In this document: positions 11,441 through 48,852 of the stretch, one piece after another
Layout of the letters: every line of letters begins with the position of its first letter
Numbering within the stretch: the first letter of the stretch is position 1
Source: an uncultured Spirochaetaceae bacterium
Lineage (GTDB): Bacteria; Spirochaetota; Spirochaetia; SZUA-6; RPPD01
Assembly: GCA_964634205.1 (NCBI GenBank)
Contig: CAZWKE010000004.1
Coordinates: 26,663 to 90,662 of the forward strand
Length of the DNA stretch: 64,000 nucleotides
Direction: 5' to 3'
Program-made: the position numbers and the translations under genes
Notes under the pieces: generated by a model
Seen by the model: only the letters and a program-made list of their open reading frames with translations
Told to the model about the DNA's origin: nothing
Databases searched by the model: none

Positions 11441-11888
11441 TACGGTTCTCGACCGAACGCCGCATTTGCGACGCCGGAAATATCGCCGGAAGCGATAATG
11501 TGATTTTATTGAACTACAAGATTTCACTATTGGAATGCAAGTAGAGTTGGATGAGATGTATCTTCCGTTGGTGGAAAGTGATAATTACAAACGTTGTGCG
11601 CATCAGTGTGCACTCTATTAACACTCGCCTTGCAGTAATTCTAAATCCGGCAAAACGGTACTAATCTGAAAAAGCGAGCTGAGTGAACATTTTAGAATCT
11701 GAGATTGTGATATCAAGAGGCAACGTCGTTTCCATTATTATTTTCACTATTAATAACTCACATGAAATCTAAAAAAGATACGAATTAGGGTTGCCTTAGT
11801 AAAAATGGCTTTTACAGGGAACAAATTTAAAATTGCAGGTAATGCCCTTTGTCTTAGCCTCCGAAGATGTAGATAAGGAGCGTTTTAT

Positions 11889-12380
11889 ATGAAGGAACTG
11901 AAGCTATTTATCAAAGATATGCAGAATGAGGCGGCCCTGCTGAAAGAGTTTGCCGAGCTTGAAGATCAGATGCAGTTGTGTGCGGGTGAGAACAGGTGGG
12001 AGGATATTGAGCGGGTGATCGGTGAGCTGAAAGGAAAGGCGGGGACATTAAACAGTATTGAGGAATGCCGCTGCGCTTCTTTTGATGCCCTGAAGAAAAA
12101 ACTGGGGTTACCTTGCGAGACCGGATTTTTAAAACTGCTGCCCATTGTACCGGTAACCGAACGGGAACGACTGCTTAGCGCGTACAGAAAACTGAAGGTA
12201 GCGGTTTTTTCGGTCAAAGGGGCAACCACGCGTCTGACCTATTATTTCAGGTCCATGGAGGGCTCGTTCAAAAAGGTCCTGGGCGAGTTGTTCCCCCACA
12301 GGAAGGGCAAGATCTATTCCAAGGACGGCAGACCCAAGAAGGTTCCCGACGACGCCCTGTTATTAAATAAGCACTTATAG
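11889..12380 (+). CDS. Putative flagellar export chaperone (FlgN-like) upstream of flgK
   Basis: 163 aa helical, acidic protein immediately 5' of flgK-flgL, which is the conserved position of FlgN. Assignment is by position and size only. Confidence 0.35.
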   Translation: MKELKLFIKDMQNEAALLKEFAELEDQMQLCAGENRWEDIERVIGELKGKAGTLNSIEECRCASFDALKKKLGLPCETGFLKLLPIVPVTERERLLSAYRKLKVAVFSVKGATTRLTYYFRSMEGSFKKVLGELFPHRKGKIYSKDGRPKKVPDDALLLNKHL

Positions 12381-12390
12381 GAGAAATATT

Positions 12391-14271
12391 ATGCTCTCGA
12401 CATTTTCCGGAATTGAAATAGGAAAGAGGGGGGTGATTGCCCATACCCAAGGTCTCATTACGGTGGGTCACAACCTGAATAATGCCGGTGTTGATGGCTA
12501 TTCGCGGCAGCGGATTGAGTTTTCTGCCGCCGATCCCATCTACCTTCCCGGTTTAAACAGGGAGCAGACCCCGGGACAGATCGGCCAGGGCATGCAGGTG
12601 GAACGCATAGAGCGTATCCGCGATATGCTTTTGGAAGGAGAAATAGTCAAGGAAACCGGGAACCAGGGGTATTGGGAGTCCCAGGATAAATATCTGAAGA
12701 TGCTTGAGCAGGTGTATAATGAGCCGACCGAGCATTCCGTCAGGGCCCTGATGGACAAGTTCTGGGAGTCGTGGCAGGAGCTTTCGGTCAACCCGTCCCA
12801 GATGGCGGCCAGGCAGGCGGTACTGGAACGGGGCCGGACCCTGCTTGACGGTATCCACCATGCCTATCAGAAATTCAGGGGAATTCGCGACATGCTTGAA
12901 GGGGACGTGGTCGGTACGGTGGACAGGGTGAATTCATTGGTGCGTGAGATTGCCGCCTTAAACGAGCAGATCCAGAAGGCGCGTGCCCTGGGAGACAACC
13001 CGAACGATATGATGGACAAACGGGACAAGAATATTGAGGAGTTGTCCAAGCTGATCGATATTACGGTCAATTACAACCAGGACCCGGACGAGTTGATTAT
13101 TTATACGAACGGCCGGCACATTGTGCAGGGCAAGCAGTTCCTGCAGTTTGCCACGCAAAAGACCGAGGCCAACGAGGGATACTCCACCGTCATCTGGAAG
13201 GACACCGGGGAGGCGGAGCAGTTCCGCGGGGGCAAACTGGCGGGATTTCTCCACCTTCGTGATGTTGAGACCAGGGGGGAGATACAAAAACTGGACCTCA
13301 TGACCATGAACTTCATCGACGCGGTCAACGCGGTACACCGCAGGGGATACGGGCTGAATGAAAAAACCGGTCTGGAGTTTTTTAAGGAGTACCCGTATGT
13401 GTTAAACGCAAACGGGAACTATGACCGAAATGGTGACGGCGCTTTTGATTCTTCTTATATCTTTCGAATGGCGGGCAAGAATACCCTTGATCCGCAGGCC
13501 CTGATCGGTATCCGCGGAACAATTACCCTCTCCGGTCCGACCGGGAACGTGACGGTGGATTATTTCCCCACCGATACGGTAAAGGACGTGGTGGCGCGCA
13601 TAAACTTGAGCGGCGCGGAAGTATCCGCGCGCCTGGACGAGGAGGGGAAACTCTCGCTCAAGGGAATGCCCGCCCAGGATACCGACAATCCTGATTTTGT
13701 CATCCGGCATGTTGAGGATTCCGGTGAGTTTCTGGCAGGCTATGCCGGCCTGCTGCAGGCACCCGGCGCGGCCGGGGCCTATAACTGGGCACAGCAGGAC
13801 GCGGTGGCCGCCCTGCGGAACGACGGGGCCACCTTTGCCGTAGCGCCCCTGGCACACCCTTCGGCCTGGATCGAGGTGAACAAGGACCTCGTGAACGAAC
13901 CGGCCTCTATTGCGGCGGCATCCGGGGTAAACGGCAGGTCCCAGGGGCCTGAAGACGGTTCGATGGCGCTGACCATCTCCGACCTGCGCTATAAAAATGT
14001 GATGATCGGCGATACACTTACCTTTGACGGGTATTTTGCCGAACTGGTGGCGTCCATCGGGTTGCGCGGCGAGCAAGCGGGAAAGGTGCTTTCAACGGAG
14101 AATCTTATCCTGAAAAATCATAAAGACCTGCGTGAATCCATTTCAGGGGTAAATATAGATGAGGAACTGACGACAATGTTGAAGTTTCAACACGGATACG
14201 CGGCCTCGGCGCGTTTTATCACCGAGTTCGATAAAATGCTTGACATTATCATTAATAGAATGGGGGTCTAA
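12391..14271 (+). CDS. flgK: Flagellar hook-associated protein 1
   Basis: 626 aa. N-terminal flagellar rod/hook family motif (…GLITVGHNLNNAGVDGYSRQRIEF…) and a conserved C-terminal helical region (…QHGYAASARFITEFDKMLDIIINRM). Confidence 0.9.
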   Translation: MLSTFSGIEIGKRGVIAHTQGLITVGHNLNNAGVDGYSRQRIEFSAADPIYLPGLNREQTPGQIGQGMQVERIERIRDMLLEGEIVKETGNQGYWESQDKYLKMLEQVYNEPTEHSVRALMDKFWESWQELSVNPSQMAARQAVLERGRTLLDGIHHAYQKFRGIRDMLEGDVVGTVDRVNSLVREIAALNEQIQKARALGDNPNDMMDKRDKNIEELSKLIDITVNYNQDPDELIIYTNGRHIVQGKQFLQFATQKTEANEGYSTVIWKDTGEAEQFRGGKLAGFLHLRDVETRGEIQKLDLMTMNFIDAVNAVHRRGYGLNEKTGLEFFKEYPYVLNANGNYDRNGDGAFDSSYIFRMAGKNTLDPQALIGIRGTITLSGPTGNVTVDYFPTDTVKDVVARINLSGAEVSARLDEEGKLSLKGMPAQDTDNPDFVIRHVEDSGEFLAGYAGLLQAPGAAGAYNWAQQDAVAALRNDGATFAVAPLAHPSAWIEVNKDLVNEPASIAAASGVNGRSQGPEDGSMALTISDLRYKNVMIGDTLTFDGYFAELVASIGLRGEQAGKVLSTENLILKNHKDLRESISGVNIDEELTTMLKFQHGYAASARFITEFDKMLDIIINRMGV

Positions 14272-14278
14272 CTGAATT

Positions 14279-15523
14279 ATGAACAGGGTCAGCAGTAATA
14301 TGGCAAGTATGGACGCGCAGTATAATATGATGCTGCGTGAATGGAAGATGAACCAGATGCAGAATAAAATGGGCGCCCAGACAAGAATCAAGGATCTGCG
14401 TGATGATCCCCTGGCCGCGGCACGTTCAACACGCCTGCAGTCGCAGCTTTTTCGCATGGGTAGATATAAAAAGAACATCGAACTGACCCAGGGTAACCTT
14501 AACTATAGTGAGTCGCGCCTGACCAATGCCCTGGAGGTGCTGCAGCGGGTGCGTGAGCTTTCGGTACAGGGGGCCAACGGCGTATACAGCAAGGACCAGA
14601 TGCGAGACATGGCGGTAGAGGTCAACCAGCTGCTGGAACAGCTGGTCTCACTGGCCAACTCGCGGAACGGCATGGGGAACACGGTGTTTTCCGGGTTTGA
14701 GTCGCACCTGGAACCCTTTCTGGTGATGCGCGGCAGGGTGGAAGGCAGCGCGAGTGATTTTATTACCGCCCTGCATTACCGCGGGGACATCGGGAAAAAC
14801 ATGGCCGAGGTATCCGAGAACACCTATGTGCAGATGAACATCCCCGGCAACCAGGCGTTTTGGGCGGAGAACTCCCATGTCTATGCCAATATAGATGCCA
14901 CCACCTACCAGGTCCAGGCCGATTCCACTATTCGCATTGACGGCGTGGCCATAGACCTGGAAGCGGGAGACAATATTTCCGCGATCATCCATAAGATAAA
15001 CGAGGCCCCGCTGGCGGTGCGGGCGCGGCTTGACCCGGTAAAGGATTCTCTGGTGCTGGAAACCACCACCCCCCACGGACTCTGGATGGAGGATGTGGGA
15101 ACGGGTACGGTCCTGCAGGACCTGGGAATACTGCAGAGAGGACGGTCCACCCCTCCGTATAATATCGCCGATACGGCCAATGTATTCGGCGGTTCTATCT
15201 TTGATATGGTGATGGCGGTACGTGACAGCCTCTACAAAGGTGATTCCGAAGGGGTAAACAAGGCCCTGGGAGGGATGGACCTTTCCATCGAGAGTGTTAC
15301 CTCTTCCTTGGCCAAAATCGGTTCACTGGATTCGCGGCTCCGGGTTACGGCCAAACGGCTTGATTATGAAGAGCCTGAAGTGGTAAAATTGAATGCGGAA
15401 GATGTTGATCTGGATGTAACCCAGGCTATTACCGAATTAAAAATGCTGGAATATACGCACCAGGCGGCCCTGGCTACATCCGCACGGGTTTTACGACCCA
15501 CATTATTAGACTTTTTGAGGTAA
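14279..15523 (+). CDS. flgL: Flagellar hook-associated protein 3 (flagellin-like N/C termini)
   Basis: 414 aa immediately after flgK. Flagellin-like N-terminal helix (…MASMDAQYNMMLREWKMNQMQNKM…) and C-terminal helix. Confidence 0.85.
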   Translation: MNRVSSNMASMDAQYNMMLREWKMNQMQNKMGAQTRIKDLRDDPLAAARSTRLQSQLFRMGRYKKNIELTQGNLNYSESRLTNALEVLQRVRELSVQGANGVYSKDQMRDMAVEVNQLLEQLVSLANSRNGMGNTVFSGFESHLEPFLVMRGRVEGSASDFITALHYRGDIGKNMAEVSENTYVQMNIPGNQAFWAENSHVYANIDATTYQVQADSTIRIDGVAIDLEAGDNISAIIHKINEAPLAVRARLDPVKDSLVLETTTPHGLWMEDVGTGTVLQDLGILQRGRSTPPYNIADTANVFGGSIFDMVMAVRDSLYKGDSEGVNKALGGMDLSIESVTSSLAKIGSLDSRLRVTAKRLDYEEPEVVKLNAEDVDLDVTQAITELKMLEYTHQAALATSARVLRPTLLDFLR

Positions 15524-37885: not shown

Positions 37886-38496
37886 GAAAAATAGTTCTTA
37901 TTGGTATTGTATGTATTATATTTCTGTTTAGCGGTTGTATCGGAGTAGAGAGTACACTGAGGATTAATGGAAACGGATCAGGGACCCTGCAATTACAATA
38001 TAGAGTTTCGCAGTTGTTGGTCAGTATGGGGCAGACGGAAGAAGGGGGAACACAGCAGCCTCCATTGCCGCTGACCGAAGATGATTTCCGCCGGGCCATA
38101 AGGAGATCGCCGGGATTGACCCTGCGTTCCGTAAGCAGAGAGGAAACGGAAACCGATATCATTATCAAGGCCGAGATTTCCTTTAACAGTATGGCGAACC
38201 TGGCCGGAAGCAACCTGTTTACGGATATGCCGATCAGTGTGCGGCGCAGCGGAGATACCATCATTTTCACCCAGGTGCTTACCCAGGGCGGGGAAGAGAT
38301 GAGTGAAGAACAACTGCAGGCCATGGAAAGCTTTTTCCAGGGATACGATCTTGCGTTTGTTATCACCGCACCGCGTAAGGTTGTCAGTCATAACCGTGGT
38401 AAACTTTCTTCCGACGGGCGTACCGTAAGCTTCCATATTACGATGATGGATCTGCTTAAGCTGAAACAAAAAACAGAGCTTACCGTATCATGGTAA
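37882..38496 (+). CDS. Hypothetical lipoprotein
   Basis: Signal plus lipobox (MRKIVLIGIVCIIFLFSGC). ATGA overlap with the upstream ORF. Confidence 0.55.
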   Translation: MRKIVLIGIVCIIFLFSGCIGVESTLRINGNGSGTLQLQYRVSQLLVSMGQTEEGGTQQPPLPLTEDDFRRAIRRSPGLTLRSVSREETETDIIIKAEISFNSMANLAGSNLFTDMPISVRRSGDTIIFTQVLTQGGEEMSEEQLQAMESFFQGYDLAFVITAPRKVVSHNRGKLSSDGRTVSFHITMMDLLKLKQKTELTVSW

Positions 38497-38507
38497 AGAG
38501 AGGTGAT

Positions 38508-39668
38508 ATGAAAAAAATTATTCTGTATGTATTTTTAGGTCTGGTTTTAATTACCGGCTGCAAAAGTACGGGTAACGGAACAGCGGCCGACGGTTCGGAT
38601 AATACGAACGTCTCTCCCCAAAACGAAAAGGCTTCCGATGTTGCCGAGATGCAGACTTATCTTGACAATGCCCGTAAAAAAATCGATCAACTTGCCGTTT
38701 CCGAAGGAATCAGCCAGTATGTTGCCGTGCTTGCCATTGAGAACAAGCTGAAAAATCCCTCCGCCAAGGCCCGTGAGCTGGCCAAGGCCGCCGAAACCGA
38801 GTTGACCAAAATCGCTTCCGCCCTGCGTCTTACCCCCGGTCCCGACTGGCTGGATGAGAATGACAACCAGATTACCGGCAGCACGATGAGTTTGGGTAAG
38901 GACAAAGCGTTGAACCCGGAGGTGTTGTTAACATACAACATGGGCGGGAGTATTGTTGTCAGCGGGGCACCGGTGGAGTTCGAGTTTACCAAGGGAACCG
39001 GGTTGATCGATAAAACCATAAAAACCAATGAGTACGGCCAGGCACTCAGCCCCATCGCCAGGGTCGGCAATGTGAAACAGGAAGTAGTGGTACGGGCAAC
39101 CTTGGTATTTTACGTTAAGGGTTTTCGCTACCGGTTTGAGTCGGTCAGCTGCAGTTTCATTTATGTGCCGCCGTCCAAACGCGCCACCATTATTGTTTAT
39201 GAAAGCGCACCCGATTATGTTTCCGACCATCCATTTGTTTTTGACGCGGCCTATAATTCTTTAAAGAAGATCGACTTCGATTTTACGCAGTATAACGGTG
39301 TACTGCTCGGTAAAAAATTCTTAAAGGTGTTCGGCGGCGATATCAATGCCATTAAGAAACTGGCCCTGGAACAGTCTGTGCCTTATCTGGTGATGGTATA
39401 CAACGATTGTTACCGGGTCAATAAAGCGCATCCTGATTTTGAAATCTATATTTCCGAGGTAAAGGCGACACTGCGCATCATACGAGTGGCGGACGGAAAG
39501 ATATTGTATGAAGCCGTAGCCTACGCGGACAAGGCCCACAATACCAACGGCCAGGGAGGTTCTCTGGAAAAGGCCAGGAACAACGGTTTCAGAAAGGCCG
39601 CGGCATTGCTTGAGAAGGAGTTGAAGGGACAGTTTCAGCAGATCAATACGGCGCTCCTGGGGGAGTAG
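38508..39668 (+). CDS. Hypothetical lipoprotein
   Basis: Start MKKIILYVFLGLVLITGC (lipobox). ~386 aa. No family recognised. Confidence 0.55.
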   Translation: MKKIILYVFLGLVLITGCKSTGNGTAADGSDNTNVSPQNEKASDVAEMQTYLDNARKKIDQLAVSEGISQYVAVLAIENKLKNPSAKARELAKAAETELTKIASALRLTPGPDWLDENDNQITGSTMSLGKDKALNPEVLLTYNMGGSIVVSGAPVEFEFTKGTGLIDKTIKTNEYGQALSPIARVGNVKQEVVVRATLVFYVKGFRYRFESVSCSFIYVPPSKRATIIVYESAPDYVSDHPFVFDAAYNSLKKIDFDFTQYNGVLLGKKFLKVFGGDINAIKKLALEQSVPYLVMVYNDCYRVNKAHPDFEIYISEVKATLRIIRVADGKILYEAVAYADKAHNTNGQGGSLEKARNNGFRKAAALLEKELKGQFQQINTALLGE

Positions 39669-39831: not shown

Positions 39832-40464
39832 GTGAAATGGGGGGATATTATTAACAAAAACAGTGTGGCCCGGCTGTCACAGTATAAAAACGCCCTGATA
39901 CGCCTGAAAAATCTGGGTTTTGTGAAGGTGTTTTCGGACAACCTTGCCGATGCGCTTGACATCCGTCCAACCCAGGTACGGAAGGATTTTTCGCTGTTTC
40001 AAATATCGGGAAACAAGCGCGGCGGGTACAACATTAATGAACTGCTCGCGAGTATCCTGAAATTGTTGGGGAAAACCGAGCTGCAGAATGTCGTTTTGAT
40101 CGGTTTGGGGCATATGGGAACGGCCCTGGCGAATTACACGGGGTTTAAAAAAGAGGGCATCCGGGTATATGCCTGTTTTGATATTGATCCGGCCAAGCAC
40201 AATGAAGCGGCCGCCCCCCCGGTATACCCGATGGAGCGGCTGCGGGAGATTGTGAAAAAGGGAGATATTAAAATCGCGATTATCGCTGTCCCGGATATCG
40301 CCGCACAGCATGTGGCGGATTTGCTGGTTGCTGCTGACATTAAAGGGGTGCTGAATTTCACCTCCATTCAGCTGCGAACGCCCGCGGACGTCCCGGTGCG
40401 TACGGTAAATCTCGTGCATGAGCTTGAGAATTTGTTTTATTTTGTGCATACGGAGGAGGAGTAG
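39832..40464 (+). CDS. rex: Redox-sensing transcriptional repressor Rex
   Basis: GTG start. N-terminal winged helix (…ARLSQYKNALIRLKNLGF…), Rossmann NADH-binding GLGHMGTAL, C-terminal …IKGVLNFT…. Confidence 0.85.
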   Translation: MKWGDIINKNSVARLSQYKNALIRLKNLGFVKVFSDNLADALDIRPTQVRKDFSLFQISGNKRGGYNINELLASILKLLGKTELQNVVLIGLGHMGTALANYTGFKKEGIRVYACFDIDPAKHNEAAAPPVYPMERLREIVKKGDIKIAIIAVPDIAAQHVADLLVAADIKGVLNFTSIQLRTPADVPVRTVNLVHELENLFYFVHTEEE

Positions 40465-40472
40465 AGAGAACA

Positions 40473-42332
40473 TTGAAAATACTGAAGATTCGCAGCTTGC
40501 GTGCAAGGCTTTTTATTTCATTTGTAATAATAATCATTATTATCAGCGGGGCCAGCTGCGGTCTGATATTTTATCTTGTGCAACACGATATAATCCTCCG
40601 GTCACAGGAACAGGCCAGGACCTATCTTGAAACGGTGGATCAGTTTTTCAGGGATGAGATCAATAAACTGCGCACGGTTTTTTTGATGTTGAAACTTCCT
40701 GTTGATACCCCGGAATTGAAACAAAATCTGGGTCTGGACTATTTTTTTGTCAAAACGGATGAGACATACAGCCCGAGTCCTTTTGTCAGGCTGGCAATGG
40801 CCGGTACCCCGGCCGGTGGATTCCGGATTATGAAAAGGGACGAGTTGTTGAGTTACGGAGAGGGGCTTTTACGTAAATCAGCCATTGAAATAAAGGATCC
40901 GCCGGGCGGGGATACGGCGGCACAAACAAAACTGGAATCCGCTATGGTGCTGGAATACGCGGTTCCGCTTCCCGGTGGTAAACCGCACCAAAGGAAGGTT
41001 CTGTACGGCGGGTATATCATCAACAGGGATTTTTCACTTATCGACCAATTGCATAAACTGGTCTTTGAAAACAAACTTTATGATGGAAAGCCGATCGGTA
41101 CCATAACGGTGTTTCTTCATGATATCCGGATTGCCACCAATGTGCTGACCGACAGCGGCCGGCGGGCAATCGGTACAAGGGTCTCCGGGGTGGTAAACGA
41201 CACCGTCCTGGTGAAAGGACAGACATGGATAGACAGGGCGTTTGTGGTGACCGACTGGTATCGTACGGCATACAAGCCCATAAAGGACTATAACGGCAAT
41301 ACTATCGGAATCCTTTATGTGGGCATTCTGGAAAGACCGTTCGTGGATATGATCATCCGGGTGTACGCGTTCGCGCTTGTAATTTTTGCCGGGGTAATCG
41401 GGATCGGTATGGTCCTTACCATTGTATTGTCCAGAATGATTTTTAAACCGCTTAAGGCAATGCTCGACGCCACAAGCGGAATCGCCAGGGGTGATTATAC
41501 CGAGACGGTCAGGCTCCATTCACCTATGAAGGAGTTTGATGTTTTTAATTCAGCGTTCAAGCGTATGGCCCGTGAACTGAACAAGCGGGAGCAGCGTCTG
41601 AAGTTTTCCGGAGAGAAACTGGTTTCATTAAACAAGAGTTACCTTGACCTGATTGGGTTTGTTTCCCATGAGCTTAAGGGGATTCTTGCTTCAACCATCT
41701 TGAATGCCTATACGGTACGGGACGGATTTTTGGGGATGGTAAATTTCAAACAACGCCGGGCCCTGGATTCCATCACCAGGAACCTGGACTACCTGGCGGA
41801 GACGGTAAAGAATTTTCTCAGCCTGAGTAGAATTGAAAAAGGCGAGCTTATTTTTCAGAAAACCGAGTGCCGTCTGAAAGAGGATGTTTTTGATCCGGTG
41901 GTTGAAACATATGAGAAGGCGGCTGCGGAAAAAGGCATTCATTTTGTCAACGGGATCACCCCCGAAACAGCGCTGTGCTCGGACCGCGACCTGCTGTTTA
42001 TTGTGGTCAATAACCTCATCGGGAACGCGGTTAAATACGGTCGTGACAACGGGACGATTATGCTTTCCTCGTATGAAACAAACGGGAAGATTACCGCTGA
42101 AATATTCAACGAAGGTGACCCGCTGTCGCCGGATGATATCGGGCGCTTGTTCGGCAAGTTCATCCGCCTGGAATCGGCCCGGAAGCGTCATATTAAAGGC
42201 ACGGGTCTGGGGCTTTTTATCACCAAGGAGATCGTGGAAAAACATGGTGGAAAAATCTGGTGTGAAAGCAGGGAAAACGGAAATTCATTTATTTTTACAT
42301 TGGAAAGGGGGGAGTATGCTCACTCCGCTTGA
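40473..42332 (+). CDS. Sensor histidine kinase with large extracytoplasmic (Cache-like) domain, HAMP, HisKA, HATPase_c
   Basis: 619 aa. TM1 at residues ~13-35, a ~250 aa periplasmic region, TM2 ~292-318, HAMP, H-box FVSHELKGILAS, N box NLIGNAVKYG, G box GTGLGLFITKEIVEKHGG. Confidence 0.85.
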   Translation: MKILKIRSLRARLFISFVIIIIIISGASCGLIFYLVQHDIILRSQEQARTYLETVDQFFRDEINKLRTVFLMLKLPVDTPELKQNLGLDYFFVKTDETYSPSPFVRLAMAGTPAGGFRIMKRDELLSYGEGLLRKSAIEIKDPPGGDTAAQTKLESAMVLEYAVPLPGGKPHQRKVLYGGYIINRDFSLIDQLHKLVFENKLYDGKPIGTITVFLHDIRIATNVLTDSGRRAIGTRVSGVVNDTVLVKGQTWIDRAFVVTDWYRTAYKPIKDYNGNTIGILYVGILERPFVDMIIRVYAFALVIFAGVIGIGMVLTIVLSRMIFKPLKAMLDATSGIARGDYTETVRLHSPMKEFDVFNSAFKRMARELNKREQRLKFSGEKLVSLNKSYLDLIGFVSHELKGILASTILNAYTVRDGFLGMVNFKQRRALDSITRNLDYLAETVKNFLSLSRIEKGELIFQKTECRLKEDVFDPVVETYEKAAAEKGIHFVNGITPETALCSDRDLLFIVVNNLIGNAVKYGRDNGTIMLSSYETNGKITAEIFNEGDPLSPDDIGRLFGKFIRLESARKRHIKGTGLGLFITKEIVEKHGGKIWCESRENGNSFIFTLERGEYAHSA

Positions 42333-42672
42333 ACAAATCAAAAAAATGCGGGCTTTGGCCATCAACCGCATCATCGGCAGCGGGTACCTGTCTACGAAGC
42401 GCGTTTATGTGGGTATGGCAACCTGTGAAATCGCCGCCGGTTCCAAGGAGGTGATGCAGGTGTTTCAAGAGGCAAAAAAGCAGGGGCTGGCTGATGTGTA
42501 CGTCAGTCAAAAAGGCTGCGCGGGCAGGTGCAACCTGGAGCCGACCGTGGAAATTGTGGAAGAAGGCAAGATCCCGGTCAAGTATGGTCTGATCGACAAA
42601 GAAAAGGCGCAGCAGATTATTGAGCGTCATCTTAAAAAAGGAGAAGTGATTACAGAATGGCTGATCAAGTAG
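42316..42672 (+). CDS. Small thioredoxin-like ferredoxin-fold protein (HndB-like hydrogenase subunit)
   Basis: 118 aa from an internal ATG overlapping the histidine-kinase stop. Cys residues at MATC…KGCAGRC. Position and size match HndB of Hnd-type [FeFe] hydrogenases. Confidence 0.6.
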   Translation: MLTPLEQIKKMRALAINRIIGSGYLSTKRVYVGMATCEIAAGSKEVMQVFQEAKKQGLADVYVSQKGCAGRCNLEPTVEIVEEGKIPVKYGLIDKEKAQQIIERHLKKGEVITEWLIK

Positions 42673-44483
42673 AAACTCGGACAATTAAAAACAGTACCGC
42701 GCAATACAATGTTATCCTCTGTTCCGGTCCCAGCTGCCTGCACCGGAAATCCAAAGAACTGCTGCAGGCGGTCAGGCGTGAGCTGGTACGTCACGGGTTG
42801 GAGCGGAAAACCGAGGTAATCCTTTCGGGCTGCCTGGGAATGTGTAAAAAGGGCCCGATAATGATTATCAATCCCGGGTATACGATTTACGGGGGAATCC
42901 ATGAGGAGCATATCGCGGAGATCATCGAGGCGCACCTGGTAAAGAACAACCCGGTGAGTGAAAAAATAATTAATGAGGACCATCTGTTTAATCGGTTCTA
43001 TCGCATTTTCGGTGATGTGGCGTTCTTCGGCAAGCAGATGCGCATCGCACTACGGAACTGCGGTATTCTCGATCCTGAAAAGATCGACGATTATCTTTCG
43101 GTAAGGGGGTATGAGGCGCTGGCCAAGGTGCTGACCTCTTATACACCGGGTCAGGTAATAGAGGAAATCGGAATCTCCGGTCTTAGGGGCCGGGGCGGCG
43201 CCGGATTCCCCACGGGATTAAAGTGGAAGCTGACCGCCGAAACCGACTCCGCTGAAAAATATGTAATCTGCAACGCCGACGAGGGGGACCCCGGCGCGTT
43301 TATGGACCGGAGTGCCATTGAAGGCGATCCGCATACGGTACTGGAAGGGATGCTTATCGGCGGATACGCGGTGGGGGCCGTAAAGGGCTTTATCTATATC
43401 CGGGCGGAGTATCCGCTTGCCATTCGCCGGCTGGAAAAGGCGATCGCCGAGGCGCGCAAGCATAATCTGCTGGGCAAAAACATCCTGGGAAGTGACTTCA
43501 GTTTTGATATTGAAATCCGTCTGGGTGCCGGTGCCTTTGTGTGCGGTGAGGAAACCGCGCTCATCCAATCGATTGAGGGCGGACGCGGAATGCCGCGACC
43601 ACGGCCCCCGTACCCGTCGGTAAGCGGGGTGTTCGGCAAGCCCACTTTAATCAATAATGTCGAGACCTGGGCCAATATTCCGGTGATCGTGCTCGACGGC
43701 GCGGACTGGTTTGCTTCCATCGGTACCGAAAAAAGTAAAGGTACCAAGGTGTTTGCCCTGGCCGGGAACGTGGTCAACACCGGGCTGATAGAGGTTCCCA
43801 TGGGGACAACCCTGCGGGAGATAATATTCGATATCGGCGGCGGTATCCCCGACGGAAAGAAGTTTAAAGCCGTACAGACCGGCGGGCCTTCAGGGGGGTG
43901 TCTGACCGAGGATTACCTGGATACACAAATCGATTATGATTCTTTGGCCAAGGCCGGTTCGATCATGGGCTCTGGTGGAATGATTGTCATGGATGAAGGC
44001 ACCTGCATGGTGAATGTCGCCAAGTTTTTCCTTGAGTTCACCCAAAACGAGTCCTGCGGAAAATGTACGCCGTGCCGTGAAGGAACCAAACGCATGCTGG
44101 AGATACTGACCCGTATCACCGCGGGAAAGGGCAGGCAGGGGGATATCGAACAACTGGAGCGCCTGGGAAATATGATACGCAAGGCCTCACTGTGCGGTTT
44201 GGGGCAGTCTGCGCCCAATCCGGTCTTAAGCACCATAAAAAACTTCAGGCATGAATATGAAGAGCATATCAACCGGAAGCACTGCCGGGCCACGGTTTGT
44301 CCGGCCATGGTGGTCTACGGTATTACCGATGACTGTATCGGCTGCGGCGCTTGTGTGCGCGTCTGTCCGGTCGGCGCTGTTTCCGGAATAAAAAAGAACA
44401 AACATACCATCGATCAGGAAGCATGCATTAAATGCGGAGAATGCTACTCGACCTGCCGCTTTAAGGCAATTACCCGTACTTAG
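42657..44483 (+). CDS. NADH-binding flavoprotein subunit of multimeric [FeFe] hydrogenase (NuoF-like; HndC/HydB type)
   Basis: 608 aa. N-terminal Trx-like 2Fe-2S (CSGPSC…GCLGMC). NuoF core (GRGGAGFPTGLKW; FMN and NAD(H) glycine-rich loops). Two C-terminal 4Fe-4S ferredoxin motifs (CIGCGACVRVCP, CIKCGECYSTC). Confidence 0.9.
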   Translation: MADQVETRTIKNSTAQYNVILCSGPSCLHRKSKELLQAVRRELVRHGLERKTEVILSGCLGMCKKGPIMIINPGYTIYGGIHEEHIAEIIEAHLVKNNPVSEKIINEDHLFNRFYRIFGDVAFFGKQMRIALRNCGILDPEKIDDYLSVRGYEALAKVLTSYTPGQVIEEIGISGLRGRGGAGFPTGLKWKLTAETDSAEKYVICNADEGDPGAFMDRSAIEGDPHTVLEGMLIGGYAVGAVKGFIYIRAEYPLAIRRLEKAIAEARKHNLLGKNILGSDFSFDIEIRLGAGAFVCGEETALIQSIEGGRGMPRPRPPYPSVSGVFGKPTLINNVETWANIPVIVLDGADWFASIGTEKSKGTKVFALAGNVVNTGLIEVPMGTTLREIIFDIGGGIPDGKKFKAVQTGGPSGGCLTEDYLDTQIDYDSLAKAGSIMGSGGMIVMDEGTCMVNVAKFFLEFTQNESCGKCTPCREGTKRMLEILTRITAGKGRQGDIEQLERLGNMIRKASLCGLGQSAPNPVLSTIKNFRHEYEEHINRKHCRATVCPAMVVYGITDDCIGCGACVRVCPVGAVSGIKKNKHTIDQEACIKCGECYSTCRFKAITRT

Positions 44484-44491
44484 GAGAGAAT

Positions 44492-46279
44492 ATGAAAGCA
44501 AAAAAAATGATTTCCATCTATATTAACGATGTCCAATACAAGGTGGCAGACGGCCAGACCATAATGCAGGCCGCGGACGCGCTTGGTTTTAAAATCCCAC
44601 GGCTCTGCTATCACCCCAAACTTTCGATCGAAGGCGCGTGTCGTGTATGTATCGTACAGGTGGAGGGCCAAAAAAATTATACGGCCTCCTGCTCCTTCCC
44701 GGTCTTTGAAAATATGCGGGTGCATACCAATACCAAGGAGCTTCGCCGTGCCCGCCGGGACATCGTTGAGCTGATCCTGGACAATCATCCCCGGGACTGT
44801 CATACCTGTGAGCGGGACGGTGTCTGTGAATTGCAGCGCCTGGCCTACGCCATGGGCATAAGAAACCGCCATTTCGAAGGAGAGCGCAAACACTATGAAA
44901 AGGACCTGTCCTCTCCGTCGGTTATCCGCGACCCGGATAAATGCATTCTGTGCGGAAGATGCGTGCGCCTCTGCTCGGAAATACAGAAGGTAAATGCGTT
45001 GGGGTATGCGCACCGCGGTTTTAAAACAGTGGTTATGCCCGCGTTTAACAAGCCCTTTTCCGAGAGTGTCTGTACCACCTGCGGTCAATGCATTAATGTC
45101 TGTCCCACGGCCTCTTTTGTGGAAAAGAATAATACGCAGGAACTCTTTGAAAAACTTGACGACCCGTCTTTGACAAAGATCGTACAGGTAGCGCCGTCCG
45201 TACGGGCCGCCATTGGTGAGGCCTTCGGCCTTGAGGCGGGAAAGGCGATGCACAAAGAGCTGGTGTCCGCCTTGAAAAAATTGGGATTCGATTATATCTT
45301 CGATACGCAGTTTGCCGCGGACCTGACCATTATGGAGGAGGCCAGTGAGCTGCTTGATCGTATACAGGGAAACGGCCGCCTGCCCATGATTACCTCATGT
45401 TCGAGCGCCTGGATAAAGTACCTGGAGCACTTCTATCCGCAGTTCCTCCCCAACCTGTCAACCTGTAAGTCGCCCATGTCCATGCTCGGGGCCCTGATAA
45501 AAAGCTATTTTGCCAAGAAGTTGGGATGTGATCCTTCTAGGCTGCTGAGTGTGGCGGTTATGTGCTGTACGGCAAAAAAGCATGAGGCAAACCGGCCGGA
45601 ACTGGCCGTGGAAGGGCTGCCCGCGGTTGATATGGTGGTCACCACCAGGGAGATCGCCTGGATGATCAAGTCTGCCGGCATCGATATGATAAGTGCCAAA
45701 GGCAGTGATTTTGACGCCCCATTAGGGCTCTCCTCGGGCGCGGGGGCGATCTTCGGGGCTACCGGAGGAGTAATGGAAGCGGCCATCAGGACCGCATATG
45801 AGCTTTATACCGGTGAGACGCTGCTTGACATCGAGCTGCAGTCCCTGCGCGGTTTTTCCGGGATAAAGGAAGCGTGTTTTACCATGGAAGACAAGGAGAT
45901 CCGTGTGGCGGTGGCCCACGGCCTGGGAAACGCGGGGAAACTGATGGAGATCATAAAAAAAGAACCCGACCGTTACCATTTTGTGGAGGTAATGGGCTGC
46001 CCGGGCGGTTGTATCGGCGGCGGCGGTCAACCCTATGCCACGGCCAATTCCATTCCATTGGATGAAGATTTCTTAAAAAAACGTGCCGAAGCCTTGTACG
46101 GCATCGACAGGGATAAAACCATCCGCAGAAGCCATGAGAACCCCGACGTGCAGCGGTTGTACAAGGAGTTTTTGGGAAGGCCCTTAAGTACGGTGTCGCA
46201 CGGCTTACTGCATACGTCATACAGTAAAAAACAGCCACAAGGTATTATTGCCGGGGGAGGAAATAATGAACAGCAATGA
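44492..46279 (+). CDS. hydA: [FeFe]-hydrogenase large subunit (HydA/HndD type, M3 architecture) with atypical H-cluster motifs
   Basis: 595 aa. Plant-type 2Fe-2S, a His-ligated 4Fe-4S (HPRDCHTCERDGVC), two 4Fe-4S ferredoxin motifs, then the H-domain. L3 is canonical (EVMGCPGGCIGGGGQP). L1 reads TSCSSAW (expected TSCCPxW) and L2 reads MCCTAKKHE (expected MPCxxKxxE). Confidence 0.85.
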   Translation: MKAKKMISIYINDVQYKVADGQTIMQAADALGFKIPRLCYHPKLSIEGACRVCIVQVEGQKNYTASCSFPVFENMRVHTNTKELRRARRDIVELILDNHPRDCHTCERDGVCELQRLAYAMGIRNRHFEGERKHYEKDLSSPSVIRDPDKCILCGRCVRLCSEIQKVNALGYAHRGFKTVVMPAFNKPFSESVCTTCGQCINVCPTASFVEKNNTQELFEKLDDPSLTKIVQVAPSVRAAIGEAFGLEAGKAMHKELVSALKKLGFDYIFDTQFAADLTIMEEASELLDRIQGNGRLPMITSCSSAWIKYLEHFYPQFLPNLSTCKSPMSMLGALIKSYFAKKLGCDPSRLLSVAVMCCTAKKHEANRPELAVEGLPAVDMVVTTREIAWMIKSAGIDMISAKGSDFDAPLGLSSGAGAIFGATGGVMEAAIRTAYELYTGETLLDIELQSLRGFSGIKEACFTMEDKEIRVAVAHGLGNAGKLMEIIKKEPDRYHFVEVMGCPGGCIGGGGQPYATANSIPLDEDFLKKRAEALYGIDRDKTIRRSHENPDVQRLYKEFLGRPLSTVSHGLLHTSYSKKQPQGIIAGGGNNEQQ

Positions 46280-46790
46280 TGATATCAAATTACAGCAGTT
46301 GAAAGAGTACATGCAGGGTTTTACCAAAGACCCACATGCGCAGTCAAATCTGATTACCGTATTGCACCGGGCCCAGGAACTTTACGGCTATCTGAAACAG
46401 GAGGTCATGGAAGAGATCGCGTATAGTCTTGCGGTCCCGACCGCCAAGATCTGGGGGGTGGCCAGTTTTTACCATTACTTTAACCTGTCACCGGTGGGTC
46501 GTCATGTTATTTCCGTCTGCATGGGCACCGCGTGTTATGTCAAAGGAGCGGGGCTTTTATTGGAACGGGTACGGCAGAAACTCAACATCGATGTCGGCGC
46601 GACCTCCGCAGACGGGCTTTTTACCCTGCAGGAAGCGCGTTGCCTGGGTGCCTGTGGACTGGCACCGGTGGTGATGATTGACGATCGTATTTACGGCAAA
46701 CTTTCAGCCGAAGGGGTTGCCGCGGTTCTGGATTCGTATGCAAACCGGTATAAAAATAATAAACAACAATCAGTAGTAAGGAGTAAATAG
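46266..46790 (+). CDS. NuoE-like 2Fe-2S subunit of [FeFe] hydrogenase (HndA/HydC type)
   Basis: Start at MNSNDD with a GGAGG RBS. Trx-like 2Fe-2S motifs CMGTACYVKG and CLGACGLAPV. Confidence 0.85.
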   Translation: MNSNDDIKLQQLKEYMQGFTKDPHAQSNLITVLHRAQELYGYLKQEVMEEIAYSLAVPTAKIWGVASFYHYFNLSPVGRHVISVCMGTACYVKGAGLLLERVRQKLNIDVGATSADGLFTLQEARCLGACGLAPVVMIDDRIYGKLSAEGVAAVLDSYANRYKNNKQQSVVRSK

Positions 46791-46796
46791 CTTAGT

Positions 46797-47192
46797 ATGG
46801 AAAAGAAAATACTAATAATCGACGATGATCCTGATTTTGCCGAGGCAATCATTACATTACTGGAAGCAAACGGTTATTCGGTGGTATACGCGGATAACGG
46901 AAGATCGGGCTTTGAACAGGCAAAAAGCAATCAGCCGGGGCTGATTCTGCTTGATGTCATGATGAGTGAGAAGACCGAAGGGTTTGACATCTCGCGAAAA
47001 CTGGCGGAGGAAAAGATTACTGCCGTAATCCCGGTAGTGCTGGTTACCGGAATCAGGAAGGAAATGAACCTTCCGTATACCCTTGAACCGGATAACGAAT
47101 GGCTGCCGGTAAAGGCGGTAATTGAAAAACCTGTAAAACCTACTGAGCTTTTGCGGGTGGTACAGGAACATATCGTGGTGGGAGAAAAGTAG
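46797..47192 (+). CDS. Stand-alone CheY-like response-regulator receiver protein
   Basis: 131 aa. ILIIDDD, phospho-Asp context LILLDVMM, conserved T (VVLVTG) and K (EKPVKP). No output domain. Confidence 0.85.
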   Translation: MEKKILIIDDDPDFAEAIITLLEANGYSVVYADNGRSGFEQAKSNQPGLILLDVMMSEKTEGFDISRKLAEEKITAVIPVVLVTGIRKEMNLPYTLEPDNEWLPVKAVIEKPVKPTELLRVVQEHIVVGEK

Positions 47193-47223: not shown

Positions 47224-48852
47224 TTATCCCGATCTTGCGGGATTCTCTTCATCAAGGAGTTCGCGCAGTTGTTCTTTCTCTATGTGGGGGCGGATAATCG
47301 TAAAGTTTTTCATAATGCCGGTAAATGTCTGCATATTCTTAAAGGAATCAAGCAGGTTGCCGCTAAACTCCTGATTTCTGTCCCCACCGATCACTTTAAT
47401 ATTACTGATAAGAAGCGGAGAATGCTGTTTGGCATCGTTTATAATCTCTGCAATGACCCCCTGAAATGAATAAAAGATATTGGTATAATCCTCTATTATT
47501 TTCATTGCCATGTTGTTGATGGTTTCGATTAGTTTATTCAGTGAATAGCCTACGGATTTTCCGCTTTTATAATCAACCAGGTATTTTCTAATTTTACTGA
47601 TACTTACCTCGCCGGGGGTGGTGAGGGTGTGTTCGAATTGAGAAATAGCTTCACGCGTTCCCTGGCATGAATGGAACAGGCGTATAAAACGCTCTTTAAA
47701 CTCCTTCTGCTCAAAAAAACCGTTTATCACTATTTTTTTTATAGTCTCCTGTATCTTTTTTTCAAAATGAAGCACGGTAAAACTCTTTACGATACTGAGG
47801 GGTTTAATATGATTAAAGGAATTGAACGACTCAGTCTGCAGCATTTTTGCCAGTTCATCTTCATATCCGTCGATTTCCAGTAGTTCCTTGCCGCTGAAAA
47901 GCTGATTTAAATCAGACAGGATTTCACGCTCGCTGCATTCACGTGTTACCTTCTCCACATCCATCTGGTAGCGTGATGAGAGCTTGCTTTTATAGACATC
48001 AAGAAATGTTTTATCGGCTTTATCGGTTTTGATGGTAAGGGCGGGATCCGCATTAATGGCCCGCAGTAACGCAAGCACAATATCGGGAGAGAGATAGGTT
48101 TTAAAAATGTTGTCCATAGAGGTTACAAGTTTGTTTATTTTTACCGCATCATTGGAGCTGATTTTCTTTTTCAGTCTTTTCAGCAGGAAGACCAGGTTTT
48201 TTTCTATACCGAGACTGAGGTTCAGATCGGCAAATACAAAATATAAATCCATGAGTTCCTGGTTTGCATGGTGTCCGATGCAGGCTGAAAAATTCGGTTT
48301 GTAACTGTTAGAGATTGTGACGTCCGGGTCAAAAAACATCAGCAGGCGGATAAAGTCATGCCGGCAAAGTGCGACAAACCGTTCCAGGGAACCGAATTCC
48401 GCATCGAAGTTGGCGAACTCGCTGCCGGAAAAGAGTTTCTGAAATTCGATAAACTCTTCATTCAGGATTTCGGTCTCGGTTTTCAGGGAAGCCGAATTAT
48501 ACAGGCGTTCCCTGATTTTATCATAACTGAAGTTTTGTTTTTGTAATTGTGTTTCTTCTTCCAGCCGTACTTCAATCAGGTAATCCTTGTACATTTCGGA
48601 AAGCCTGTCGTTCTCATTTAAGATTGTTTTATAGATCAGTTCCTTAAGGGGACGCAGATACTGTAAAAAGCTGAATAATGTGCGGGCGAACTGGGGCAAC
48701 AACTGCCCGGTAGATTGTTTGTAGAATATAAGTTTGTGCTGTTTGATAAGCTTATAAATTTGTTTTAAATCCCTTTTTCTATTATATTCCCGGCTGTTTC
48801 CCGCCAATAGTAATGAAAAGAACTCTTTAATGCGTTTAAGGATTTTAATCAT
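47224..48852 (-). CDS. Large hypothetical protein (542 aa), no recognisable domains, low GC
   Basis: Long uninterrupted ORF with protein-like composition and no antisense competitor. GC ~38-40% versus ~50-60% in neighbours. Confidence 0.5.
   Translation of the reverse strand: MIKILKRIKEFFSLLLAGNSREYNRKRDLKQIYKLIKQHKLIFYKQSTGQLLPQFARTLFSFLQYLRPLKELIYKTILNENDRLSEMYKDYLIEVRLEEETQLQKQNFSYDKIRERLYNSASLKTETEILNEEFIEFQKLFSGSEFANFDAEFGSLERFVALCRHDFIRLLMFFDPDVTISNSYKPNFSACIGHHANQELMDLYFVFADLNLSLGIEKNLVFLLKRLKKKISSNDAVKINKLVTSMDNIFKTYLSPDIVLALLRAINADPALTIKTDKADKTFLDVYKSKLSSRYQMDVEKVTRECSEREILSDLNQLFSGKELLEIDGYEDELAKMLQTESFNSFNHIKPLSIVKSFTVLHFEKKIQETIKKIVINGFFEQKEFKERFIRLFHSCQGTREAISQFEHTLTTPGEVSISKIRKYLVDYKSGKSVGYSLNKLIETINNMAMKIIEDYTNIFYSFQGVIAEIINDAKQHSPLLISNIKVIGGDRNQEFSGNLLDSFKNMQTFTGIMKNFTIIRPHIEKEQLRELLDEENPARSG

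Follow-up and report, generated by a model that had tools for sequence, protein, structure and literature searches.

HydABC-type [FeFe]-hydrogenases are flavin-based electron-bifurcating or confurcating complexes, and their HydA subunit is placed in Group A3 in HydDB terms and in 'group A6' in NCBIfam. In this study, we describe the HydA protein encoded in a 64-kb stretch of DNA (hereafter, the window) from an uncultured Spirochaetaceae bacterium (assembly GCA_964634205.1, contig CAZWKE010000004.1). When compared with the canonical four-cysteine motif set of these enzymes (TSCCPxW / MPCxxKxxE / ExMxCxxGCxxGGGQP, for L1, L2, and L3, respectively), the window protein matches in L3 and deviates in both L1, which reads TSCSSAW, and L2, which reads MCCTAKKHE.

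A number of reports bear on the serine of L1. In HydA1 of Acetobacterium woodii, the ligand of the [4Fe-4S] cubane that is Cys299 in Thermoanaerobacter kivui is replaced by Ser301Aw (Katsyv et al. 2023, PMC10021017); the cryo-electron microscopy structure models Ser301 as a cubane ligand, the Fourier-transform infrared signatures are normal, and the enzyme is active (PMC10021017). The Protein Data Bank (PDB) sequence of this protein has TSCSPGW as L1, a motif already reported for trimeric hydrogenases in a genome paper of 2013 (PMC3787301), and Kertess et al. 2017 (PMC5855289) noted that about 20% of putative hydrogenase sequences have serine at the L1 cubane-ligand position. In our own broad sample, consisting of the best 150 representatives, clustered at 50% identity, of an exhaustive HMMER search (149 of them aligned), serine stands at the corresponding position, CpI 300, in 25 of the 149. 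The cysteine-to-serine change in L1 is thus not new, as it has a precedent in an active, catalytic Group A enzyme, and strict motif identity is not truly family-defining, because that enzyme shows the same L1 deviation.

The A. woodii enzyme (PDB 7Q4V, 7Q4W, 8A5E) shares with the window HydA the domain architecture, the partner subunits, the TSCS sequence with the proton-relay cysteine kept, and a cysteine at CpI 321, with 45% identity over the Foldseek structural alignment. The two differ in their motifs (TSCSPGW / MPC / MAC in A. woodii, TSCSSAW / MCC / MGC in the window) and at CpI 325, which is Gln in the former and Met in the latter; the traits of the A. woodii subgroup, P301, G302, and the proline of L2, are replaced in the window by S305, A306, and C358. 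The highest-scoring solved homolog is HydA1 of T. kivui (PDB 8A6T, 46% identity), also of the HydABC type. It agrees fully with the window protein in the F-cluster motifs and the proton pathway, but its H-cluster motifs are canonical (TSCCPSW / MPC / MAC), with Cys299 ligating the cubane. The Group B enzymes with 'TSCCCP' (CpIII, ToHydA) also carry an extra conserved cysteine by a cluster motif, of debated role, and keep the four canonical ligands; there the extra cysteine belongs to L1, whereas in the window it belongs to L2 and the L1 ligand position is Ser, and both the group and the domain architecture differ.

Results

A genuine and strongly conserved motif variant

The unusual motifs of the window HydA are genuine and strongly conserved, and in other respects this HydABC catalytic subunit is ordinary. 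Its motif register was fixed with HMMER, which aligned the protein without gaps to HydA1 of T. kivui and of A. woodii, to Thermotoga maritima HydA, and to CpI; a MAFFT alignment was the second basis of the residue equivalences. C303 corresponds to CpI C299, the proton relay, and S304 to CpI C300, the cubane-ligand position, while S305 and A306 stand in for CpI P301 and G302. In L2, the extra cysteine, C358, occupies the position of CpI P354, and it is followed by C359, the canonical cubane ligand equivalent to CpI C355, with K362 and E365 conserved. In L3, C503 and C507 are equivalent to CpI C499 and to the bridging CpI C503. An earlier note on this DNA, made from its letters alone, had read the L1 ligand-position cysteine as serine with the relay cysteine kept, a cysteine in place of proline in L2, and an intact L3, and had asked for an alignment to CpI and other HydA proteins in case its register was shifted. 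The alignments bear out this reading: there is no shift, and the canonical ligand cysteine is truly replaced. The nucleotide ranges given in that note were 1–5 nt off, although the residues were correct.

Could the odd motifs be the product of a sequencing or assembly error, or the signs of a decaying pseudogene? The codons of Ser304 (TCG) and Cys358 (TGC) lie two substitutions each from the canonical Cys and Pro codons, the reading frame is intact, and exactly the same 595-aa protein recurs in four independent metagenome assemblies. Moreover, TSCS[SA]AW together with MCC and an intact L3 is found in all 120 of the closest cluster representatives (73–100% identity) and in 79 of 83 further relatives; serine at position 304 is without exception in a 42-sequence alignment, and the MCC motif is invariant across about 200 clade homologs from several phyla. 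As the codons are two changes off, the four assemblies agree, and some 200 clusters carry the same motif pair, such an error or decay can be discarded, and we give it practically no chance of being the explanation.

Family, architecture, and catalytic residues

The window HydA scores 831.9 bits against the NCBIfam model NF040763 ('NADH-dependent [FeFe] hydrogenase, group A6'; cut-off 765), covering all of the profile (positions 1-571 of 571). Its Pfam domains (Fer2_4, NADH-G_4Fe-4S_3, Fer4_Nqo3, Fe_hyd_lg_C, and Fe_hyd_SSU) describe the standard M3-type architecture, namely a [2Fe-2S] site (C39/C50/C53/C67), a His-ligated [4Fe-4S] site (H99/C103/C106/C112), two further [4Fe-4S] sites (C151-C161 and C194-C204), the H-domain, and an SSU-like tail. 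The Pfam scan of HydA detected neither a PAS domain nor an extra C-terminal cluster domain, the C-terminus being Fe_hyd_SSU. The best solved relatives are T. kivui 8a6t_A (E 3e-179), followed by A. woodii 7q4v_A (E 9e-166), and a Foldseek search with the AlphaFold2 model, whose H-domain has predicted local distance difference test (pLDDT) values mostly of 80–95, returned 8a6t_A and 7q4w_A as top matches, confirming the fold. In the alignment, the proton pathway is kept in full (C303, E283, S323, E286, and R290, equivalent to CpI C299, E279, S319, E282, and R286), and the equivalents of CpI M353, K358, E361, M497, and F417 are also present.

Related operons add the maturation machinery to this picture. 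Planctomycete operons hold two genes in addition to those of the window, in the order hydB-hydA-X-hydC-Y-response regulator. In one such locus (L010), X and Y are HydG and HydE (11778-13301 and 13849-14949), scoring 434 bits against TIGR03955 (cut-off 312) and 332 bits against TIGR03956 (cut-off 254.6), respectively, which gives the layout hydB-hydA-hydG-hydC-hydE-response regulator. This layout recurs in about 30 other Planctomycete loci. In the clade described below, about 36 loci have HydG and/or HydE adjoining hydA, and in most of the clade relatives with enough flanking sequence the two maturases are found in the operon or beside hydA. The presence of [2Fe]-subcluster maturases in the operon of its relatives argues strongly that the variant HydA would carry a real H-cluster. 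The Spirochaete cassettes (the window, L001, and L002) are without local HydG or HydE genes.

The Cys-Cys form of L2 marks a single clade

The proline-to-cysteine change in L2 (hereafter, MCC) is apparently an undescribed signature of one clade. No description of it was found in the searchable literature, the motifs are not discussed in the review PMC8924675, and among the 149 aligned representatives MCC is present only in the window protein and in P0122. A comparison of 79 genome loci revealed four combinations of L1 and L2: TSCSSAW with MCC, the window type; TSCSPGW with MPC, the A. woodii type; TSCCPTW with MCC, found in two Dependentiae (L040, L042) and one member of the Armatimonadota (L043); and the canonical TSCCP with MPC. 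A second search, seeded with L040, found TSCCPTW with MCC in two more proteins (P0271, P0272), together with many TSCSAAW forms with MCC.

In a neighbor-joining tree in which all motif columns were masked, all the MCC sequences fall into one clade with 100% bootstrap support, with C300 and S300 members (CpI numbering) both inside, and the A. woodii-type sequences lie outside. Within the clade, a subclade with TSCCPTW and MCC stands beside a crown with TSCSSAW and MCC that is supported at 98%. Given this single, fully supported clade, the change of CpI Pro354 to Cys is, on the masked tree, one that arose once, and it is found on both the Cys-300 and the Ser-300 backgrounds.

The crown also contains a small nested lineage with other motifs. 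L032 and L034 (HydA at ~10001-11743 and 9857-11617) have A232 / TSCSPGW / C321 / MPC / MGC, and P0317, the protein closest to them, is canonical throughout, with A232 / TSCCPGW / A321 / MPC / MAC. Judging from its position in the tree, this lineage has reverted stepwise toward the canonical motifs. The identity of L032 and L034 to the crown dips over CpI 283-400, and a recombination test gave no clear rise in identity to A. woodii-type sequences in exchange; the reversal could be due to recombination or to a concerted change of the cluster shell. From the pattern of crown and revertants we therefore infer that CpI positions 232, 300-302, 321, 354, and 498 act as a co-varying shell around the cluster.

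Two more positions near the cluster are distinctive. The whole MCC clade has Met in place of Gln at CpI 325, next to the distal CN ligand, and Gly in place of Ala at CpI 498 except in L045 and in the canonical revertant P0317; both residues also appear sporadically outside the clade. As for CpI 321, the genome loci with S300 nearly always have a cysteine there or at 354, and C321 occurs in 20 of the 27 Ser-300 sequences of the representative alignment. A role of C321 as a general compensating cysteine was nevertheless rejected, since among the 149 representatives it is also present in 55 of the 105 canonical TSCC enzymes and is absent from six enzymes with S300.

Some members of the family are considerably larger. 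P0271 and P0272, with TSCCPTW and MCC, and P0297 and P0122, with TSCSAAW and MCC, have 762-776 aa, about 180 aa more than the others, and in P0271, P0272, and P0297 a C-terminal thioredoxin-like [2Fe-2S] domain (PF01257) is found. These three long forms look like a HydA-HydC-like fusion, judged from their domain content, reminiscent of T. maritima HydA. The top match of the exhaustive representative search, P0121, is a polypeptide of 4122 aa with seven HydA-like stretches (46% identity), which could be a giant multi-hydrogenase protein or an artifact of gene calling or assembly.

The hydA gene belongs to a conserved seven-gene cassette

In the window, hydA is the fifth gene of a seven-gene cassette (39832-47192) in the order Rex, Cache-domain kinase, small ferredoxin-like protein, HydB, HydA, HydC, and response regulator. 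The coordinates of these genes and of the HydA motifs are collected in Table 1.

Table 1. Genes of the hydrogenase cassette and motifs of HydA in the window.
Feature	Position	Strand	Remarks
HydA, catalytic [FeFe]-hydrogenase subunit, 595 aa	44492..46279	+	translation free of stops
L1 region PMITSCSSAWIKY	45383-45421	+	TSCSSAW within
L1 motif TSCSSAW	45392..45412	+	codons acc tca tgt tcg agc gcc tgg
C325 (= CpI A321)	45464..45466	+	Cys or Ala in MCC clade
M329 (= CpI 325)	45476-45478	+	Met where Gln is usual
L2 motif MCCTAKKHE	45560..45586	+	codons begin atg tgc tgt acg
L3 motif EVMGCPGGCIGGGGQP	45986..46033	+	intact; C503 and C507 within
G502 (= CpI 498)	45995-45997	+	Gly for the usual Ala498, beside cubane Cys
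Rex-type redox-sensing (NADH/NAD+) transcriptional repressor	39832..40464	+	first cassette gene; NCBIfam NF003996, Pfam Put_DNA-bind_N and CoA_binding
Sensor histidine kinase with Cache domain	40473..42332	+	Pfam sCache_3_3, HisKA, HATPase_c; conserved in most clade loci
Small thioredoxin-like [2Fe-2S]-ferredoxin-like protein, 118 aa	42316..42672	+	gene call from identical contigs
HydB, NuoF-like flavoprotein subunit	42657..44483	+	Pfam 2Fe-2S_thioredx, Complex1_51K, SLBB, NADH_4Fe-4S, Fer4 x2
HydC, NuoE-like [2Fe-2S] subunit, 174 aa	46266..46790	+	Pfam 2Fe-2S_thioredx, E 3e-49
Single-domain response regulator	46797..47192	+	last cassette gene; Pfam Response_reg; kept downstream in clade loci

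Rex matches its NCBIfam model with 228.7 bits (cut-off 138) and is kept upstream in the clade loci. The small ferredoxin-like protein gave a weak NCBIfam 2Fe-2S ferredoxin match, under the cut-off, and is 66-90% conserved across the clade. HydB has an N-terminal [2Fe-2S] site, a flavin mononucleotide (FMN) and NAD(H) site, a [4Fe-4S] site, and a C-terminal 2x[4Fe-4S] ferredoxin domain, and its closest solved relative, over the full length, is A. woodii HydB (7q4v_B, E 4.5e-243). The solved relatives of HydC include T. kivui HydC (8a6t_C, E 4e-38); an alternative start, the upstream TTG at 46248, would give a HydC protein of 180 aa. With its TSCSSAW/MCC HydA, the cassette is conserved in Spirochaetes, Omnitrophota, and many Planctomycetota (Sedimentisphaerales, Phycisphaerae), a distribution which suggests that it may have spread horizontally as one unit. 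Among these three groups (the window and loci L001-L048), the cassette proteins are 45-90% identical.

A search for Rex operators with the Firmicute consensus TTGTGAANNNNNNTTCACAA, allowing up to 3 mismatches, gave 5 matches against 3.07 expected, which is not significant, and none of them lies in the promoter region. Upstream of Rex there is an open reading frame of 392 aa (38490-39668, plus strand) without a Pfam match. Downstream of the cassette, the minus strand encodes a DUF5312 protein (47224-48852) with no match in the 80 genome loci (L001-L080). The remaining neighbors of the cassette in the window are housekeeping genes.

Discussion

All together, our results lead us to regard the gene of the window as, quite probably, the catalytic HydA of a HydABC-type, NAD(H)- and ferredoxin-dependent [FeFe]-hydrogenase, in which Ser304 would be the fourth ligand and Cys358 would not be a ligand. 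As for the assignment of the two residues themselves, we consider it likely that Ser304 is the fourth cubane ligand, as in A. woodii, and that Cys358 is a second-sphere residue. In the model that we propose, a normal H-cluster, matured by HydE, HydF, and HydG, would make or split H2, as homology indicates, and protons would move along the relay C303-E283-S323-E286-R290, as the conserved residues suggest. Electrons would pass from the F-clusters of HydA to the FMN of HydB and from there to NAD(H) and ferredoxin, again by homology. The [4Fe-4S] part of the H-cluster would be held by C359, C503, and C507, together with the hydroxyl of Ser304, as modeled for Ser301 of A. woodii and in line with the invariance of the serine throughout the clade. 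Cys358 would not be needed as a ligand; it may be one element of the co-varying shell formed by S232, S301, A302, C354, and G498 (CpI numbering). The corresponding position of CpI lines the [2Fe] pocket, and the most likely role of Cys358 is to tune packing, hydrogen bonding, or redox properties. The gene order suggests that Rex, the kinase, and the response regulator, all of them conserved, probably tie expression to the redox state.

Several observations weigh against this assignment. The engineered C115S variant of CrHydA1, which corresponds to CpI C300S and is the same Ser-for-Cys change as that in the window L1, loses most of its [4Fe-4S] cubane and all activity (PMC5855289). Ligation by serine therefore needs a permissive scaffold, and the extra cysteine is an obvious candidate for compensation. 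Inside the MCC clade, S300 never occurs without C354, C321, or both, so that the pairing seen in the genome loci holds there without exception, and the sole sub-lineage that lacks both cysteines, that of P0317, has regained C300. Besides, the tree was built by neighbor-joining only, the mean pLDDT of the HydA model is only 70, and neither HydG nor HydE is encoded within the 64-kb window, HydF not having been searched for. On the other hand, the natural clade, unlike the engineered protein, shows strong purifying selection, has co-encoded maturases, and carries the additional changes S301, A302, C354, and G498.

An alternative is that the ligand has been relocated, with the tandem C358 and C359 binding the cubane together with C503 and C507, and Ser304 only forming a hydrogen bond with the cluster. 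A tandem of cysteines ligates cluster N2 in the NuoB/Nqo6 subunit of complex I, and the consecutive Cys-Cys sequence that ligation of this type needs is present in the L2 of HydA. The Fe ligand would have moved from L1 to L2 through an intermediate with two cysteines, TSCCPTW with MCC, that survives in metagenome-assembled genomes of Dependentiae and Armatimonadota; indeed, the tree suggests that C354 was gained on a TSCC background and C300 lost later, which is a classic ligand-swap route. The invariance of C358 in the roughly 200 clade homologs, the location of the L2 cysteine in a flexible loop (PMC5855289), the inactive and poorly cluster-loaded C115S variant, showing that Ser alone can be insufficient, and the fact that within the clade the loss of C354 goes with a retained C321 (L032, L034) or a regained C300 (P0317) all point in the same direction. 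However, in the basal members C354 stands beside the canonical ligand cysteine, which implies another role at its origin, and because MCC is thus also paired with a canonical TSCC L1, Cys358 need not replace a lost ligand. Ser-300 is strictly conserved, with no drift to Ala, Gly, or Thr, as expected of a residue that binds, or is hydrogen-bonded to, the cluster. L032 and L034 have dropped C354 and yet retain S300, both C321 and C354 are missing from L060 and from six of the representatives with S300, and the A. woodii-type enzymes show activity with a serine in L1 and MPC in L2. Furthermore, P354 of CpI has been described as contributing, with A230, P231, and S232, to the H-cluster cavity, rather than as facing the fourth cubane Fe (PMC10147833). 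Overall, the evidence leans against a relocated ligand, which we consider rather unlikely; if true, it would be the first natural move of an H-cluster ligand, and it would explain why a serine works in the L1 of this protein although C115S kills CrHydA1.

Another alternative to a catalytic HydA with Ser304 as ligand would be a non-catalytic or sensory protein, one of the two options suggested by the earlier note, in which the altered L1 and L2 block assembly or turnover of the H-cluster and the protein signals to the adjacent kinase and response regulator. It is true that the histidine kinase, the response regulator, and Rex flank hydA and are conserved with it, and that the sensory HydS proteins (TmHydS of Group C, TamHydS of Group D) are also found near regulatory genes. 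Sensory [FeFe]-hydrogenases have lost the proton-relay cysteine and possess both a PAS domain and a cluster domain at the C-terminus, whereas the window HydA keeps the relay cysteine and the whole proton pathway and has neither domain. The observation that the motif pattern looks different from that of the sensory groups therefore stands, but it does not extend to the catalytic Group A enzymes, where A. woodii has TSCSPGW. HydB and HydC are co-encoded with HydA, the operons of the clade relatives hold HydG and HydE, the score lies above the curated cut-off of a catalytic group, and the A. woodii enzyme with the same L1 serine is active. Thus, the regulatory context, which had been taken to fit a sensory role, is part of a conserved cassette that holds a catalytic complex, and the sensory explanation, which fails on the proton pathway, domain content, partner subunits, and maturase linkage, has in our view very little chance of being correct.

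The finding has consequences for how hydrogenases are recognized. Strict L1/L2 motif filters, as used for example in PMC6085437, would wrongly discard the window HydA, and they would also drop a large clade in Spirochaetota, Omnitrophota, Planctomycetota, and related phyla. This clade, which has a cultured carrier in Anaerobaca lacustris (P0326), supplies near-isogenic variants of the cubane shell that arose in nature, namely S300 with C354, S300 with C321 and without C354, C300 with C354, and the fully canonical form. Such variants could explain why ligation by serine is tolerated in nature and not in the engineered CrHydA1, and they could show the effect of a thiol at CpI 354 on redox tuning, catalytic bias, and O2 sensitivity. 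The clade would gain in significance should the tandem cysteines turn out to be ligands.

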